Below are positions 7,736 through 55,143 of a stretch of 56,751 nucleotides of DNA, piece by piece (positions within the stretch are counted from its first letter, which is position 1; every line of letters starts with the position of its first letter). The notes beneath the pieces were generated by a model, which saw only the letters and a list, made by a program, of their open reading frames with translations, had not been told where the DNA came from and searched no databases. The stretch comes from a virus (taxonomy: Duplodnaviria > Heunggongvirae > Uroviricota > Caudoviricetes), in IMG/VR virus record IMGVR_UViG_2778261162_000006, positions 1 to 56,751 of that record; one strand, 5' to 3'. The position numbers and the translations under genes were made by a program.

Positions 7736-8299
7736 ATGAGGCTAACCGTGGGTAAGCATCACTGGAAAATAGAAAAACAGCCTGAGTGGTACGTGAAAGC
7801 TGTCAGAAAAACTATCGCGGCGTTGCCGGGTGGTTACGCTGAAGCGGCTGACTGGCTCGATGTAACAGAAAACGCTTTATTCAACCGCCTTCGTGCAGAT
7901 GGCGATCAGATTTTCCCGCTGGGATGGGCAATGGTTTTACAGCGTGCTGGTGGCACTCACTTCATTGCTGATGCTGTGGCGCAGTCTGCAAATGGCGTCT
8001 TTGTGTCTCTTCCTGACGTCGAGGATGTGGACAACGCCGATATCAACCAACGCCTGCTGGAAGTCATTGAACAGATCGGCAGTTATTCAAAACAGATTCG
8101 TTCAGCAATTGAAGACGGTGTAGTGGAACCGCATGAGAAGACAGCAATTAACGATGAGCTGTACCTCTCAATTTCGAAGCTGCAGGAGCATGCAGCACTG
8201 GTCTACAAAATCTTTTGCGTTTCAGAAAGTAGTGACGCCCGCGAGTGTGCAGCTCCGGGCGCCGTGGCGTGTCGTGACTGTGGAGAAACTAACGCATGA
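7736..8299 (+). CDS. CII-position regulator (YdaT-like), 187 aa
   Basis: Position immediately downstream of cro; family assignment by recollection only. Confidence 0.5.
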
Positions 8300-10807: not shown

Positions 10808-11617
10808 ATGAATAATCTGATGGTCATTGATGGTATTGAAGTTCGTCGTGATGCTTATGGGCGTTACAGCCTGAACGATCTGCACAGGGCAGCCGGGGGA
10901 GAACAAAAAAAACGCCCGAAATACTGGCTCTCCAATAAGCAAACCTGTGAATTGATTGAACAAATTTTCACCGAGGGTGGAATTCCGCCTCTGGAAAAGA
11001 ATCAACCAGTTAGCGTTATTAATGGCGGAAATAACCAGGGGACGTATGTCTGCAAAGAACTGGTGTATGCCTATGCAATGTGGATCAGCCCGTCATTCCA
11101 TCTGAAGGTGATCCGTACTTTCGATATGGTAACCAGCGCACCGGAAAAATTATCCGGACAGGCTGCTGACAAGATGCAGGCTGGCGTGATCCTGCTGGAC
11201 TTTATGCGCCGGGAGTTAAACCTGTCTAACTCTTCAGTGCTTGGTGCCTGTCAGAAACTCCAGGAGGCTGTTGGCTTACCGAATCTGGCACCGCGCTATG
11301 CCATTGATGCTCCTGCTGACGCGCCTGATGGCTCAAGCCGCCCCACGCTATCATTGAGTGCACTGCTGAAGCAGTATGGTATCCGCCTGACAGCTAATCA
11401 GGCATATCACCAGATGGCGAAGCTGGGGATCGTTGAACAACGTGAACGATACAGCCGCACTGCGATTAACAACATCAAAAAATTCTGGTCGCTGACGGCG
11501 AAAGGCTGCATGTTCGGCAAGAACATCACCAGTCCCGCAAATCCGCGCGAGACGCAGCCGCATTTCTTCGAATCCCGATTCCCTGAGCTGTTAAAGCTGC
11601 TCAATACCGTTCATTGA
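10808..11617 (+). CDS. KilA-N domain protein
   Basis: Internal ATG after AGGAG; N-terminal MNNLMVIDGIEVRRDAYGRYSLNDLHRAAG resembles KilA-N/APSES domain. Confidence 0.6.
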   Translation: MNNLMVIDGIEVRRDAYGRYSLNDLHRAAGGEQKKRPKYWLSNKQTCELIEQIFTEGGIPPLEKNQPVSVINGGNNQGTYVCKELVYAYAMWISPSFHLKVIRTFDMVTSAPEKLSGQAADKMQAGVILLDFMRRELNLSNSSVLGACQKLQEAVGLPNLAPRYAIDAPADAPDGSSRPTLSLSALLKQYGIRLTANQAYHQMAKLGIVEQRERYSRTAINNIKKFWSLTAKGCMFGKNITSPANPRETQPHFFESRFPELLKLLNTVH

Positions 11618-11618
11618 G

Positions 11619-12614
11619 GTGACCGTGAGAGCACTACTGACCCCTGAAATTGCCCCGCGTATGGGGATCGTATTGTTCAGACCAGGTTCAGAGCTGATGC
11701 CCTTGTTTATGCAGGGGCGTGTCTTGCTGGAGCCTGAGCCGGAGCATTATTCATCTTTCGCCAGTGGTGCCGTTCCCGCGGCGTCACAACCGCTGGCGGA
11801 TGATCCTGCCGTTCGGGCCGTGTTCCGCAATGAGGCAGTGATCCGTCGTGCTGGTGGCGTGGAATGTCTTGAAAGCTGGTTACTTCGTGAAAAAGGCTGC
11901 CAGTGGCCTCATTCCGACTGGCACAGCGAGAACATGACCACAATGCGACACGCTCCGGGTGCAATCCGTCTGTGCTGGCACTGCGATAACCAGCTGCGCG
12001 ATCAGTTCACGGAACGGCTGGAATCAATGGCAACGGATAACTGTGCCCGCTGGGTGTTGTCTGTTGTGCGTCGGGATCTCGGTTTTGATGACAGTCACGT
12101 TGTGACAATGCCGGAACTGTGCTGGTGGCTGATTCGTAATGACCTGGCGGATGCCTTACCGGAAAGTGCAGCCCGTAAGGCACTGAGATTACCGAAGCCT
12201 GTTGTGCCGTCTGTCACCCGGGAAAGTGACCTTGTGCCTTCGGTTCCTGCCACCAGCATCATCCAGGATAAGGCGAAAAAGGTGCTGGCGCTGAAAGTGG
12301 ATCCGGAGTCGCCGGAGTCTTTTATGTTACGCCCAAAACGTCGCCGCTGGGTTAATGAAAAGTACACGCGCTGGGTTAAGACACAGCCGTGTGCATGTTG
12401 TGGAAAGCCCGCTGATGATCCCCACCACCTGATAGGTTACGGTCAGGGTGGAATGGGAACAAAAGCGCATGACCTTTTTGTGTTGCCTTTGTGCAGAAAG
12501 CATCACGACGAGCTGCATGCGGATACCGTGGCATTTGAAGAAAAGTATGGCTCCCAGCTGGAGCTGATATTTCGTTTTATCGATCGCGCGCTGGCAATTG
12601 GCGTGCTGGCCTGA
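11619..12614 (+). CDS. DUF968-like protein with HNH-like Cys/His C-terminus
   Basis: GTG start overlapping upstream stop; C-terminal CACCGKPADDPHHL...CRKHHDELH motif. Confidence 0.6.
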   Translation: MTVRALLTPEIAPRMGIVLFRPGSELMPLFMQGRVLLEPEPEHYSSFASGAVPAASQPLADDPAVRAVFRNEAVIRRAGGVECLESWLLREKGCQWPHSDWHSENMTTMRHAPGAIRLCWHCDNQLRDQFTERLESMATDNCARWVLSVVRRDLGFDDSHVVTMPELCWWLIRNDLADALPESAARKALRLPKPVVPSVTRESDLVPSVPATSIIQDKAKKVLALKVDPESPESFMLRPKRRRWVNEKYTRWVKTQPCACCGKPADDPHHLIGYGQGGMGTKAHDLFVLPLCRKHHDELHADTVAFEEKYGSQLELIFRFIDRALAIGVLA

Positions 12615-12632
12615 TTTTTTCGGAGAAAGGTG

Positions 12633-12995
12633 ATGCGTGATATTCAGATGGTTCTGGATCGTTGGGGAGCATGGGCGGCGAGTGATAGTTCAGGAGTAGA
12701 TTATTCTCCTATAGCTGCTGGGTTTAAAGGGCTTCTTCCCTATACAAGCAAAACACGTCAGGCTTGTTCAGATAGTGATGCATTAATTATTGAAGGTTGT
12801 CTTGCACGTCTAAAGCAAAAAAGACCTGATGAGCATTCGCTTCTTGTGGCACATTATTTATACAGAATATCCAAGCGTAAGATTGCAAAGGCGCGTGGAA
12901 AGGATGAGAAACTAATACGCATTGAGATACAGATGGCTGAGGGGTTTATTGATGGATGCCTTTCAATTCTGGATGTTAAACTTGAAATGGATTAG
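12633..12995 (+). CDS. Late-gene antiterminator Q
   Basis: ~120 aa; position upstream of late region; ATG after GGAGAAAGG. Confidence 0.7.
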   Translation: MRDIQMVLDRWGAWAASDSSGVDYSPIAAGFKGLLPYTSKTRQACSDSDALIIEGCLARLKQKRPDEHSLLVAHYLYRISKRKIAKARGKDEKLIRIEIQMAEGFIDGCLSILDVKLEMD

Positions 12996-13007
12996 TGAAA
13001 CCCCGGC

Positions 13008-13883
13008 TTAAGCCGGGGATGTTTCAGATTGAAGTGTTTTTTTCTTGGGCTCGTTCTTAGATGATTTTGTTTTCTTTTGACGATTGAGTTTTTTCTCTTT
13101 GCGTCTGTCAATATAATCGTCCCACCAATCAGGTTTTACTGTTGGGACGATTCTGCAAATATCAGCAATTGCAACAACAATGTTGCTCGATTGCACTCCA
13201 TCGACGTGCTCTGCCAGTGAGGGAGGAACTTGTTGGTTCATTGGATCGAGGATAAAATCCACACCCTTTATACGGGCATGTTTAGCGGCAGGAACGAAAT
13301 CAGCATCGCCAGCAATCAGGACGATCACATCAACTAGTTTCTCATGAGCAAGGATAGTTATATCCATACCAAGCTTAATATCGACGGCTTTTTGTTTATA
13401 TTCGTAGTAGAAATCGTCGTTAGTTAACTCAGACCATTGAATTTCATTACGTAATAGTTTCTTAAGAGTATGTTCTTTTATTTGCCAGTTACCGACGTTT
13501 GAAAGAATACCCATACGAAGTGCCGTTTTACGATTCTTCCTTAGCTCCTCATGAAGCTTGTTTCGTAAAACATTCGGAGCATGTGTCTTGAAGTTTTTAG
13601 TTGATGGGGTTTTGTTGTCTCCATCAGGCAAAGGATACTTAATCTGTTTATCAAGCGGCGGGCAGTCGTAATAGTAAATACGGTAAAGCTCAAGTGGTTC
13701 ACGGTCAGCGTGAGCACCATGTGGAACCTCTACATGAAATTTAACAATTCGCCAGATTATTTTAACAAGTTGTTGGCTGTCTAACTCATGCCCAGGGAAA
13801 TGTTTTCGTAGAAAGTAATCAATCCGACGGATGAAGTAGCCGCCGTCAATCAAGACTGCTGTTTTCTTCATTGAAAAACTCAC
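13008..13883 (-). CDS. NYN/PIN-like domain protein with Lys-rich C-terminal tail
   Basis: VIVLIAGDADFVPAAKHARIKG acidic motif typical of NYN/LabA-like nucleases; opposite orientation to flanking late genes. Confidence 0.65.
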   Translation of the reverse strand: MSFSMKKTAVLIDGGYFIRRIDYFLRKHFPGHELDSQQLVKIIWRIVKFHVEVPHGAHADREPLELYRIYYYDCPPLDKQIKYPLPDGDNKTPSTKNFKTHAPNVLRNKLHEELRKNRKTALRMGILSNVGNWQIKEHTLKKLLRNEIQWSELTNDDFYYEYKQKAVDIKLGMDITILAHEKLVDVIVLIAGDADFVPAAKHARIKGVDFILDPMNQQVPPSLAEHVDGVQSSNIVVAIADICRIVPTVKPDWWDDYIDRRKEKKLNRQKKTKSSKNEPKKKTLQSETSPA

Positions 13884-13962
13884 AAAAAAAGCTCAGAACC
13901 GTTGAGTAGACCCTAAATATTATCTACGAACAGTGCTGAGCTGGTGACGCAATAATTAACTA

Positions 13963-14060
13963 TTGACATTTGCGTTGTCAACAAATTTTGCACTGTTTAA
14001 ATGTAAATTTTTTCTGCTGTCAACATATAGTGTCATCTTTGGCATGTTGACACTATATAA
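13963..14060. promoter_or_regulatory. Dyad-symmetry elements with TTGACA motifs (divergent promoter/operator region)
   Basis: TTGACAtttgcgtTGTCAA; TGTCAACAtatagtgtca ... TGTTGACActatata. Confidence 0.5.
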
Positions 14061-14247
14061 ACGCTTACGCGGTCCGCAAAAATAATTGTATCATGTTAAG
14101 AGTGGTTACTTCGACTCCTTCCTTAAAACCGCAGTTGAGCGGTTTTTTTGTACCTGTAAACCTGGTGCAGTACAGTAAACACGCTGGTGGTCGTGAATAC
14201 TGGCTTTTTATCTTGCTGGCTTTTTAGACAAGAGTTATTGGTATGTC

Positions 14248-14475
14248 ATGTTAACCAGAAGGGAAAAAGACATGCTAAAACAGCAAGATATGACAGAAAC
14301 CGCCGCCGTAGTCCTTCATTTCCTACCTGCTGACAAGTGGGTAACGCCACGCATGATGACGAGAACTACCGGAGTAAGCGAAGCCCGGTGCCAGTTAATA
14401 CTGACTCAGTTAGTTCTGGCGGGTCTGGCGAAGGATAACGGCGGGTACGGGAATAAATTCAGACGCTGCCAGTAA
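14248..14475 (+). CDS. Small hypothetical protein (possible DNA-binding regulator)
   Basis: ORF; alternative ATG at 14272 has AAGGGA RBS; helix-like segment TPRMMTRTTGVSEARCQLILTQL. Confidence 0.5.
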   Translation: MLTRREKDMLKQQDMTETAAVVLHFLPADKWVTPRMMTRTTGVSEARCQLILTQLVLAGLAKDNGGYGNKFRRCQ

Positions 14476-14625: not shown

Positions 14626-15678
14626 ATGAAAAATACTGTAAAAATAAACAGTGTTGATTTAATCAACGCTGATTGCCTGCATTTTATTCAGTCCCTGCCT
14701 GATGATTCCATTGACCTGATTGTTACCGATCCGCCGTACTTCAAGGTGAAACCCAACGGCTGGGACAATCAGTGGAAAGGGGACGAAGATTACCTTAAGT
14801 GGCTGGACCACTGTCTGGCCCAGTTCTGGCGGGTGTTAAAACCTGCCGGAAGCCTTTACCTGTTCTGTGGGCATCGCCTGGCATCTGATATTGAGATCAT
14901 GATGCGTGAACGTTTCAACGTGCTTAACCATATCATCTGGGCGAAGCCGTCCGGACGTTGGAATGGGTGTAATAAAGAAAGTCTGCGCGCATATTTTCCT
15001 GCCACAGAGCGCGTTCTGTTTGCTGAACATTACCAGGGGCCATATCGCGGCAAAAGTGACGGCTATGCGGCAAAAGAAAGGGAACTCAAACAGCACATAA
15101 TGGCACCGCTGATATCGTATTTCAGGGATGCTCGTGCCGAACTGGGTATAACGGCAAAACAAATTGCCGAAGCCACAGGTAAGAAAAATATGGTTTCCCA
15201 CTGGTTTGGTGCCAGTCAGTGGCAGTTGCCGAATGAGGCTGACTATCGGAAGTTACAGGCACTGTTTTCCCGTATAGCGGCAGAGAAGTTTCAGGAACAA
15301 CAACTGGAACAACCACACCACCAGCTGGTGGCATCTTATGATTCACTGAATCGCAAATATTCTGAATTGCTGGATGAGTTTAAATCTCTCCGGCGCTATT
15401 TCTCCGTATCAGTCTCCGTGCCTTATACCGATGTCTGGACGCATAAGCCCGTTCAGTTCTACCCGGGTAAACATCCGTGCGAGAAACCGGCGGATATGCT
15501 CCGGCAAATAATCAATGCCAGTAGTCGACCTGGTGATCTGGTTGCTGATTTCTTTATGGGATCCGGTTCCACAATAAAAGCAGCAATGGCGCTGGGGCGT
15601 CGGGCGTTAGGTGTTGAACTTGAGTCAGAGCGGTTTAATCAGACGGTGAAAGAGGTAAGTGAACTGGTGGGGAAATAA
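14626..15678 (+). CDS. DNA methyltransferase, beta-class amino-MTase (likely N6-adenine)
   Basis: Motif IV DPPY (TDPPYF) near N-terminus and motif I FFMGSGST near C-terminus. Confidence 0.85.
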   Translation: MKNTVKINSVDLINADCLHFIQSLPDDSIDLIVTDPPYFKVKPNGWDNQWKGDEDYLKWLDHCLAQFWRVLKPAGSLYLFCGHRLASDIEIMMRERFNVLNHIIWAKPSGRWNGCNKESLRAYFPATERVLFAEHYQGPYRGKSDGYAAKERELKQHIMAPLISYFRDARAELGITAKQIAEATGKKNMVSHWFGASQWQLPNEADYRKLQALFSRIAAEKFQEQQLEQPHHQLVASYDSLNRKYSELLDEFKSLRRYFSVSVSVPYTDVWTHKPVQFYPGKHPCEKPADMLRQIINASSRPGDLVADFFMGSGSTIKAAMALGRRALGVELESERFNQTVKEVSELVGK

Positions 15679-44073: not shown

Positions 44074-44201
44074 CTGGTTGAGTATACAGTAGTAGACTTT
44101 GAGCGACGAAAGAAAAGGCTGTGTCTAGGGTCGCTCCCGAAAATCCGTACACCTCGACGGACTGGTACAGCCACTACAGTAGAGGACGCTGAGGTGTGCG
44201 T

Positions 44202-54123: not shown

Positions 54124-54651
54124 ATGCTGATGAGTAAGGCAGAATATGCCAAACACAAAGGCGTAAGCCGCCAGACAGTTTACGACTGGATCGATAAAGG
54201 CGAAGTGGTCATGTCCGGTAAAAAAATCGATGTGGAAGCGACAGAGCAGCGGAACAGCCCACCTGCACAGGGAAAAGACACAGTTTCTGAAATGTGGCCA
54301 GAGAGAACGCTGGAAATGACGTGGGGCGAGTTCTGGAAAGCAGTTAAGGCCAGAGGCGGTAAAATTCCTGCGCCAGCAACGGACGAGGGCATACAGCAGC
54401 GTGTGCTGGATGCAGCCGGGGAATTAGGCTGGGAAGTGCACTTTCTTGATGATGGTGCTATCTGCCTTGAGGATTGCGACGGGCAGCATTACTTTGAACA
54501 ATACAATTTGCGAGGTAATGCCAGGCTGGCAATTCGTATGCTGCGTTGCGAACTCTGCTATGTTGCAGGTGATTATCCCGATGAACTGGAATCATGGAGT
54601 GAAGCCGGGCTAAACGCCCTGGCTGAATGGGAAAAATCAGACCATCAATGA
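54124..54651 (+). CDS. HTH DNA-binding protein
   Basis: N-terminal SKAEYAKHKGVSRQTVYDWIDKGEV helix-turn-helix. Confidence 0.55.
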   Translation: MLMSKAEYAKHKGVSRQTVYDWIDKGEVVMSGKKIDVEATEQRNSPPAQGKDTVSEMWPERTLEMTWGEFWKAVKARGGKIPAPATDEGIQQRVLDAAGELGWEVHFLDDGAICLEDCDGQHYFEQYNLRGNARLAIRMLRCELCYVAGDYPDELESWSEAGLNALAEWEKSDHQ

Positions 54652-54655
54652 CATC

Positions 54656-54870
54656 AAAAAGTGTCAAGTTGAGCAGCTTGCCAGGTTGACACTTTACACT
54701 CTGAACGCGAAAAAGTGTCAACCTCGCTGTAAGCCCCGCCATTACTGGGTTTGTGCCAGATTTACCACGTCAAAAAGCCGAAAAAATCGCGAAAAGTGTC
54801 AAGTTGCTATGCTTAGAAATGCTAAGGTTTGATAAGGTTTTTCGCGAAAAAGTGTCAAGTGTGTCAACCG
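54656..54870. repeat. Array of AAAAGTGTCAA repeats with inverted TTGACACTT partner
   Basis: At least four direct copies at ~50-80 bp spacing and one perfect 10-bp inverted pair separated by 20 bp. Confidence 0.7.
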
Positions 54871-55143
54871 CGCCGCTTTAGAAAACTTTATGTGCAGATC
54901 GTTGGATGCATCTGTCAAAACTTGCCACCCACCAGCACCGCCAGCGGGGATTTTTGGCTACACGCGCTCTAAGTAACAGTTGCTTCAGTGCGTTACATAC
55001 GTTGGAAGTGTTATAACTCAAGTTTTTGAGACAAAGTCAGAATTGTATGAATTTGTCTATAGCCGTCTACTCAAGTTTTCTACATAATATAAGGAAATAG
55101 CATGTTGTTTAATTAATGTACGATAATTCTGAAAGAGTAACAT

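Follow-up and report, generated by a model that had tools for sequence, protein, structure and literature searches.

A conserved terminator-like leader RNA precedes an NYN-domain nuclease gene in lambdoid and other temperate phages

Introduction

Type III toxin-antitoxin (TA) systems such as ToxIN, CptIN, and TenpIN consist of a promoter, a structured RNA, a terminator that sets the ratio of RNA to toxin, and an endoribonuclease gene. Such systems reside on mobile elements and act in abortive infection. Temperate phages also carry exclusion genes that are expressed in the lysogen, among them rexAB of lambda, stk of 933W, and sieB of P22; in lambda, rexAB lies in the slot between cI and N. Here, we analyzed a 56,751-nucleotide (nt) stretch of DNA from a virus of the Caudoviricetes (IMG/VR record IMGVR_UViG_2778261162_000006), an E. 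coli-type lambdoid prophage that we refer to as the window. Within it, we focused on a locus (positions 13008-14060) that holds a minus-strand gene for an NYN-domain nuclease. We found that this gene is preceded by a conserved, structured leader RNA and that the same is true of its relatives in temperate phages of several phyla.

Toxin genes preceded by one nonrepeat RNA have been described. In AbiF-RCd22, a single nonrepeat RNA in front of the toxin gene restrains the toxin in cis and in trans (PMC12373285). In AvcID, the RNA is labile, and the toxin is freed when transcription is shut off and the RNA is lost (PMC10511110). Weinberg et al. reported in 2017 the DUF3800-associated motifs and other RNAs with 3′ terminators, each tied to one protein family and with unknown roles (PMC5737381). 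The NYN family studied here is currently labeled "hypothetical" or "NYN domain-containing" everywhere. Our literature search for this RNA-NYN pair returned nothing specific, and neither the leader RNA nor its near-obligate link to a widespread prophage nuclease appears to have been described.

Results

A structured leader RNA lies between the promoter and the NYN gene

The NYN gene is preceded on its own strand by a leader RNA of about 65 nt with a short 5′ tail, an 18-bp hairpin, and a run of seven U residues (Table 1). Judged by sequence, the hairpin and U-run look like an intrinsic terminator. The leader folds with a minimum free energy of -22.4 kcal/mol (z = -5.4), which none of 200 shuffled sequences equaled. 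When we aligned the upstream regions from E. coli, Edwardsiella, and Ewingella, we saw a near-invariant block of ~60 nt beside the start codon, flanked by sequence that could not be aligned. The leader is 97% identical to that of Edwardsiella, versus 77% for the coding sequence and 47% for third codon positions, and the Edwardsiella NYN gene is saturated at synonymous sites. The corresponding values for Ewingella are 86%, 66%, and 42%. Because leader identity is far above that of third codon positions, we concluded that selection acts on the RNA sequence itself.

We found an equivalent hairpin and U-run within the upstream 110 nt in most of 80 genome loci with NYN relatives, which come from Proteobacteria, Acidobacteria, Bacteroidota, Clostridia, and Lentisphaerae. 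Aligning all 62 leaders with MAFFT and folding them with RNAalifold recovered just 4 pairs; the inner stem and loop differ in length. We therefore took two homogeneous subsets, wrote their structures by hand, and built a covariance model from each. Model R1 (seed of 24 sequences) has an 8-bp outer stem, an internal loop, a 7-bp inner stem, and a U-run. In the seed, 12 of its 15 pairs have changes on both sides, and none of 500 shuffles was as good. A search of 1.22 Mb with R1 returned 51 places, 50 of them directly upstream of an NYN gene and on its strand. Across these 51 hits, 13 of the 15 pairs are compensatory, a value that again none of 500 shuffles reached. Model R2 (seed of 16 gammaproteobacterial sequences, including the window) is an 18-bp hairpin in which 12 of 18 pairs are compensatory and 93% of cells are paired, versus 27 to 42% in slid controls. 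R2 matches the window at 13882-13944 on the minus strand (78.2 bits, E = 2.8e-19) as the sole strong match there, and it also matches 18 genome loci, one of them outside the seed. The strand of the leader is fixed by G-U pairs and by the one-sided U-run. We rejected the possibility that the hairpin terminates transcription of a preceding gene: in the window, the minus strand has no gene upstream of it, and the opposite strand scores 22 versus 78 bits.

Within R1, conservation peaks at bases of the internal loop that are not paired (5′ strand, C-A-G-U-A; 3′ strand, C-G-A-N-C), which are kept in 38 to 49 of the 51 sequences. As a sequence pattern, this conservation would fit recognition by a trans-acting factor. 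In sequence, CAGUA/CGANC has the signature of a bulged-G (sarcin-ricin/loop E) module, which the loop may form in three dimensions. The R1 loop GGCAGUA (alignment A6, columns 7-15) resembles the ops element that recruits RfaH, GGCGGTAG; as one copy of the RNA lies beside a NusG paralogue, this likeness may be more than coincidence. The R2-type RNA of the window has ordinary pairs where R1 has the internal loop.

For neither class did Rfam 15 have a match at the leader, either at permissive E values (the window region and 8 + 5 further loci) or at gathering thresholds (the whole window). The subthreshold hits (STnc130 at 14117-14253 on the minus strand, a snoRNA, mir-3747, and Acido-Lenti-1) lie elsewhere, and we took them as chance.

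The RNA accompanies the NYN family in phages of several phyla

The leader RNA precedes the NYN gene in 78 of 78 viral loci, 67 recognized by R2 and 11 by R1. In the genome loci, the covariance models found it in 50 + 19 of 81, and further copies are visible by eye. Among complete E. coli genomes, the RNA, which is unannotated there, is present in exactly the 27 genomes that carry the NYN gene. The class of RNA tracks the clade of the protein: R2 occurs with relatives of ~45% identity and above and R1 with those of ~39 to 48%. To look for a partner protein, we clustered all open reading frames (ORFs) within 8 kb of 80 genome loci. The largest neighbor cluster occurred in only 9 loci, and we therefore found no conserved partner protein.

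We also examined the association from the side of the RNA. A pattern of the enterobacterial type gave 58 hits in IMG/VR, with the NYN gene next in 55. An R1-type pattern gave 25 hits there, 23 of them true by the model; 11 have the NYN gene, and ~9 lack it despite room. In metagenomes, the R1-type pattern found at least 120 loci. Among the matches listed, 70 were followed by NYN, 11 were too short, 16 were true copies without NYN, and 23 were false; that is, NYN follows 70 of the 86 true-motif copies. Depending on the sample, 64 to 95% of RNA copies have NYN next. Some NYN-less copies adjoin integrases or prophage ends, and a Legionellales bin (L043, 1221-1280) has a second promoter and RNA without NYN 6.7 kb from its NYN-linked copy. 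This asymmetry, in which NYN is always accompanied by an RNA that can itself occur without NYN, is what one would expect of a toxin and its antidote.

The family occurs in temperate phages of Proteobacteria, Firmicutes, and Bacteroidota, and at least 557 stretches of viral contigs encode an NYN relative. Relatives are also encoded by 65 deposited phage genomes, 48 of which are Stx2a-converting phages; other carriers include Proteus phage Brookers, Burkholderia phage phiE202, Moraxella phage Mcat4, and Streptococcus phage Javan85.

The gene product is a predicted NYN-family ribonuclease

A sequence-only reading of this locus had assigned the gene to the NYN/PIN-like nucleases, subject to a profile match. 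We found that the gene product matches Pfam NYN (PF01936) with an E value of 1.4e-9 (39 bits versus a cutoff of 24.2), the alignment being confined to amino acids (aa) 109 to 212. Among the 120 matches listed, PF01936 is present in all homologues except two fragments, and the relatives are mostly 250 to 290 aa long and come from Enterobacterales, Pseudomonas, Halomonas, and others. Related clusters in the protein database number 3236, and in PHROGs the protein belongs to phrog_5783, of unknown function (E = 7.9e-109).

The NYN-type acidic motif proposed in that reading also held up. In an alignment of 55 members (41 to 86% identity), IDGG (with D9), QKxVDxKLGxD (with D164 and D170), and GDxDF (with D189 and D191) are invariant, including the five acidic residues, whose catalytic positions we assigned by motif and not by superposition. 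The invariant motifs LYRxYxYD and RKxALRxG are specific to the family. The lysine-rich tail that had been pointed out is present here (aa ~255 to 287) and is not conserved across the same alignment.

A sequence search of the PDB with the family profile gave nothing meaningful (the best match, at E = 0.51, was a nucleoporin); comparison of folds alone was informative. An AlphaFold2 model built from the 55-member alignment had a predicted local distance difference test (pLDDT) value of 92.2 and a predicted template modeling (pTM) score of 0.84. Foldseek matched it to the NYN domain of MARF1 with a probability of 1.00, and the predicted structure has a PIN-like alpha/beta/alpha fold that superposes on solved NYN domains. 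The protein is an elaborated NYN domain, with ~100 residues inserted between the first strand-helix and the rest, and it lies outside the NCBIfam equivalog TIGR00288 (30 bits versus a cutoff of 178). From sequence and model, we predict that it is a metal-dependent ribonuclease of the NYN family.

In 3 of the 27 E. coli carriers, IS1 has inserted within the NYN coding sequence at two different sites (strains F5505-C1 [L167] and 2017.15.02CC [L168]). One insertion deletes the N terminus, and the other deletes the C-terminal tail. The insertions may mean that the NYN gene is costly, or they may merely reflect a preference of IS1 for AT-rich DNA.

The predicted promoter is at a fixed distance from the hairpin

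The predicted sigma-70 promoter of the cassette has 10 of 12 matches in a promoter scan and would start transcription at about 13946. When we aligned 63 family loci on the start of the hairpin, TTGAC fell at -41 to -36 and TAnnnT at -17 to -12. C-A-U-C-C is kept just before the hairpin, with an A at -5 in 44 of the 63 loci. Given this fixed distance between promoter and hairpin, the RNA would start ~5 nt before the hairpin. The distance from the hairpin to the start codon is also short (median, 24 nt; 45 nt or less in 66 of 71 loci). This leaves no space for a second promoter, and expression of NYN would therefore require read-through of the leader.

The RNA and gene form a cargo cassette in a variable slot

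Table 1. Features of the cassette and its surroundings in the window
Feature	Positions	Strand	Remarks
Q antiterminator gene	12630-12995	+	Pfam Phage_antitermQ, E = 8.9e-52
Exchangeable cassette	12996-14063		Alignments with phage cdtI and E. coli S163-2
GC-rich hairpin CCCCGGC-TTAA-GCCGGGG	13001-13018	both	Between convergent Q and NYN genes; NYN stop codon in loop
NYN-domain nuclease gene	13008-13871	-	287 aa from ATG at 13871 (family alignment and RefSeq start)
Longer ORF form	13008-13883	-	291 aa, alternative GTG start at 13883
Shine-Dalgarno-like GUGAG	13879-13883	-	Between U-run and ATG; read from sequence
Leader RNA, ~65 nt	13884-13946	-	Hairpin 13890-13942; U7 13884-13890
Predicted sigma-70 promoter	13952-13981	-	-35 TTGACA 13976-13981, 18-nt spacer, -10 AATTAT 13952-13957
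TTGACA-N7-TGTCAA dyad	13963-13981		Overlaps -35
Dyad-rich upstream region	13963-14058		
11-nt perfect inverted repeat ATATAGTGTCA / TGACACTATAT	14025-14035 / 14048-14058		
pR′-like -10 TATCAT	14089-14094		In segment common to phage cdtI, starting near 14064
Terminator hairpin	14125-14151		~35 nt after -10; shared with phage cdtI
Small ORF	14248-14475		phrog_331
DNA methyltransferase, type II-like	14626-15678		PADLOC MTase_II, E = 1.6e-152; late operon, just before holin

The Q and NYN genes are convergent, with Q on the left. A DUF968/HNH gene and a KilA-N gene lie upstream of Q, and the holin and lysozyme genes lie further right. The hairpin between Q and NYN (-17.3 and -17.2 kcal/mol on the two strands, z = -4.1 and -4.4) is likely a two-way terminator. 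Phage cdtI has a Q that is 93% identical and the same downstream region, and homology to it breaks just past the Q stop codon and returns near 14064; these sharp breaks therefore delimit an exchangeable unit. In its place, cdtI has two other minus-strand genes, DUF6731 and a 147-aa gene (L001, 2889-4277), and E. coli S163-2, with which the window likewise shares Q and pR′, has a 339-aa hypothetical gene (L087, 695-1714). The slot between Q and pR′ is thus polymorphic, with at least three alternative cassettes, all antisense to the late operon. The cassette has its own promoter and end hairpin, lies between operons, and is present or absent among homologous phages, as cargo ("moron") elements are. 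We concluded that this lambdoid prophage carries it as self-contained cargo. The sequence-only reading had described a minus-strand gene with its own promoter in a cargo slot between Q and the late operon, and our analysis agrees with each part: the ORF has Q on its left and the pR′-like -10 and lysis genes on its right, alternative antisense cargo fills the slot in other genomes, and the predicted promoter is of the sigma-70 type. It had missed the leader RNA and its terminator, which separate the promoter from the start codon.

Of 5426 complete E. coli genomes, 27 carry the 1.1-kb segment at 98 to 100% identity, under the annotation "NYN domain-containing protein"; one carrier, strain CREC-629, has it inside a complete prophage adjoining a tRNA-Thr gene. 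Edwardsiella prophages have an NYN gene that is 86% identical and is placed and oriented likewise, antisense between Q and holin; there, the Q is a lambda-type protein unrelated to the Q of the window. We rejected vertical descent of the shared cassette through related Q genes, as BLASTP of the window Q against the Edwardsiella Q found nothing. In the Edwardsiella prophage L082, which shares this cassette, the early region additionally encodes the toxin-antitoxin pair BrnT/BrnA (11161-11677).

Many relatives occupy a different slot. In ~44 of the 78 viral loci, the cassette directly follows a cI-type repressor gene (HTH_3 plus Peptidase_S24) on the same strand, with Cro and CII divergent upstream and N downstream, and the deposited phages 2B8 and E212 have the same cI-cassette-N order. 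This slot, where lambda has rexAB, is also the one used in the 48 Stx2a phages. Whichever slot it occupies, the cassette lies outside the lytic transcription units or antisense to them.

On the other side of the cassette, the pR′-like -10 and the terminator would together give a leader transcript of ~50 nt, as read from sequence; the 6S RNA of lambda is a much longer late leader. The stem of this terminator shows compensatory changes relative to phage cdtI. An Edwardsiella prophage with a Q of an unrelated family has this -10 and initial transcribed sequence, TATCATGTTAA, as well. The methyltransferase gene has no nuclease partner nearby, and more than 1400 E. coli genomes carry both this gene and the small ORF. 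Elsewhere in the window, an Rfam int-alpA RNA (44118-44185; 45.5 bits, above threshold) and a tRNA (1369-1441) mark integrase-associated or attachment regions.

A model of RNA restraint and its alternatives

We propose that the cassette encodes an RNA-restrained ribonuclease that is expressed from the resting prophage and most likely excludes other phages. We hold this model tentatively, at a little short of an even chance. According to this model, most transcripts would end at the leader terminator as a small RNA, and NYN would be made only by read-through. The leader would be the cognate RNA partner of the nuclease; it would hold NYN production down and would probably also bind or decoy the enzyme. 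Expression would come from the resting prophage because the cassette lies outside or antisense to the lytic transcription units. Loss of restraint would then lead to RNA cleavage and to the exclusion of other phages. Three findings favor direct interplay between RNA and NYN: the association is asymmetric, the loop is conserved, and the class of the RNA matches the clade of the protein. Exclusion is favored by position only, namely, the antisense Q slot here and the cI-N slot in many relatives. The same placement disfavors a role in lytic host takeover.

Several observations weigh against this model. R1-type RNA also precedes a DUF3800 gene between hsdS and hsdR of a type I restriction-modification locus (L348, 3488-4329), an ORF6N-domain gene in a restriction-modification-like island (L294, 4521-5165), and a PRiA4_ORF3 gene (L284, RNA at 7926-7981, minus strand), and it is thus shared by several defense-island genes. 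Sense copies without NYN lie just after a lambda-type Q (L198, ~2796-2850, and L248), after a Q-position gene without a Pfam match and directly before tRNA-Arg(UCU) (L239, 3556-3699), and between a NusG paralogue and the terminase genes (L190, 7788-7841). Stx phages contain tRNA clusters, and the layout of L239 is alike. Since the RNA occurs before other genes and behind antiterminators, it is not strictly NYN specific and might instead respond to some factor of the host or of a phage. Some family members are found in ordinary-looking chromosomal contexts. Compared with type III TA systems, the RNA here is a single hairpin instead of tandem repeats processed by the toxin, and we found no tandem repeats of the ToxI kind in 12900-14300; the protein has an NYN fold and not that of ToxN/AbiQ. 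PADLOC-DB 2.0 gave marginal matches only, to HEC-09 (E = 4.6e-4) and NYN PDLC01154 (E = 5.1e-4), each over ~47 residues, and the protein is therefore not a catalogued defense protein. HEC-09, a distant relative and the sole NYN defense candidate put to the test, did not protect (bioRxiv 10.1101/2024.01.29.577857).

Some of these observations would be explained if the leader were purely a cis-acting attenuator or 5′ stabilizer that is sensed by RNA polymerase or by a factor of the host and holds expression of a costly gene low and constitutive. NYN would then never contact the leader, and the nuclease would have some other RNA-processing role. The hairpin and U-run do sit between promoter and start codon, the same RNA occasionally precedes unrelated genes, and some copies are in nonphage chromosomal settings. 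We nevertheless consider this explanation unlikely. A generic terminator would not keep unpaired loop bases across phyla, nor would it be conserved above nonsynonymous sites or track NYN in 78 of 78 loci without any other conserved neighbor. In addition, there are stand-alone copies with their own promoter.

The NYN-less copies behind Q, the Q-position gene, and the NusG paralogue occupy the places of late-leader terminators. They would be consistent with an antitermination switch, in which an incoming or induced phage would supply an antiterminator (Q, N, or a NusG paralogue), polymerase modified by it would read through the leader, and NYN would be on only during infection. Q proteins, however, require a promoter-specific DNA site and a pause element, and the NYN promoter and initial transcript show neither and have no resemblance to the window's own pR′. 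Conservation of the internal loop on both its strands suggests that the RNA itself is recognized, and the family spans phyla with very different phages. We doubt that such a switch operates here.

The sequence-only reading had stressed TTGACA palindromes upstream of the gene, which could be repressor operators that place it under independent control, with the nuclease perhaps serving lytic host takeover. The palindromes are real: TTGACA/TGTCAA occurs 4 times in 13884-14063 versus 0.07 expected per 180 nt of the window, and none of 20000 shuffles reached 4. Both dyads, including the TTGACA-N7-TGTCAA that overlaps the -35, recur in the Edwardsiella cassette. However, when we inspected the 63 listed promoters by eye, we saw the -35-overlapping TTGAC..GTCAA dyad in only a minority, and the cassette encodes no regulator. 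The control element kept across the family is the structured leader RNA and not these palindromes. A lytic role also fits poorly with a gene that is antisense to lytic transcription here and in a lysogeny operon slot elsewhere, and we regard this explanation as rather improbable. In the promoters of L005, L006, L047, L055, L082, and L086 (Enterobacterales and Pseudomonas), the -35 hexamer forms half of a TTGAC(N4-7)GTCAA inverted repeat that reaches into the spacer and may be an operator. The only other TTGACA/TGTCAA cluster in the window has 4 to 5 hexamers in 180 nt, at ~54600-54980.

Finally, a protein that acts on DNA in recombination or replication, like the flap endonuclease (FEN)/5′-exonuclease flap nucleases, is very improbable, as its best matches and Pfam domain are NYN/LabA, the helix-hairpin-helix and helical arch were not detected, and its obligate partner is RNA.

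Discussion

Our analysis shows that a conserved, previously uncatalogued RNA precedes an NYN nuclease gene. This RNA offers the first concrete experimental handle on the family, be it a regulator, an antidote, or a substrate mimic of NYN. Terminator-ended RNAs tied to defense-island genes lack an assigned function, and a simple hairpin joined to a known nuclease fold is a tractable example. If RNA restraint of NYN does serve defense, the cassette would add a new RNA-controlled effector to the prophage exclusion systems, and the gap between Q and pR′ would be a second cargo hot spot to search.

A stronger form of the RNA-restraint model would make the leader a trans-acting antidote of a toxic NYN ribonuclease and the pair a new nonrepeat RNA-antitoxin system in temperate phages of many phyla, Stx2a phages included. 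We think this doubtful. If it were true, the stand-alone RNAs behind Q or NusG-like antiterminators, which would be made abundantly, could be counterdefense decoys. The loop signature of R1, the commonest class of the RNA, would then point to the sarcin-ricin loop of 23S rRNA or similar modules as the target; the PIN toxin VapC20 targets the sarcin-ricin loop of 23S rRNA.

Among known systems, the protein itself is closest to the LabA-like/NYN nucleases (PF01936), such as VPA0982 (PDB 2qip) and the NYN domain of MARF1 (PDB 5yaa). It differs from them in ~100 extra residues, in its family-specific motifs, and in the obligate upstream RNA, and no member of this family has been characterized. HEC-09 is likewise an NYN-type nuclease within defense loci; it has an N-terminal helix-turn-helix-like domain, and its similarity to our protein is marginal. 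Like rexAB, stk, and sieB, many relatives lie in the cI-N variable slot as self-contained cassettes with their own signals that are present or absent among related phages. The proteins are unrelated, however, the window cassette is in the Q-pR′ slot and antisense, and NYN, unlike rexAB, stk, and sieB, is not known to have an exclusion phenotype.

The closest precedents for an RNA-restrained toxin would be, by analogy, ToxIN, AbiF/RCd22, and AvcID. As in type III TA systems, an RNA lies directly upstream of the gene, with one promoter and a terminator between them, all of which are predictions here. The one-sided dependence, with the RNA found at every NYN locus and NYN missing beside some copies of the RNA, would be indirect support for neutralization of NYN by binding of the leader. 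Because the repeats and the ToxN fold were not found, we describe the locus as one that may work like type III and not as a member of that type. It might also be likened to RNases that sense their own mRNA leaders. With AbiF and AvcID, it shares a prophage or defense toxin gene preceded by one conserved nonrepeat RNA. Their protein families (Abi_2 and a deaminase) are different, the RNA structures are unrelated, and the Rfam models, including abiF, miss this leader.

The DUF3800-associated motifs are also structured RNAs that end in Rho-independent terminators and occur in several phyla, and the L348 copy of the present RNA precedes a DUF3800 gene. The Rfam models for DUF3800, drum, and skipping-rope RNAs, however, do not match this RNA, which is invariably encoded immediately upstream of its partner gene and on the same strand. 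We regard it as apparently one more, simpler instance of that phenomenon, with NYN as its main partner.

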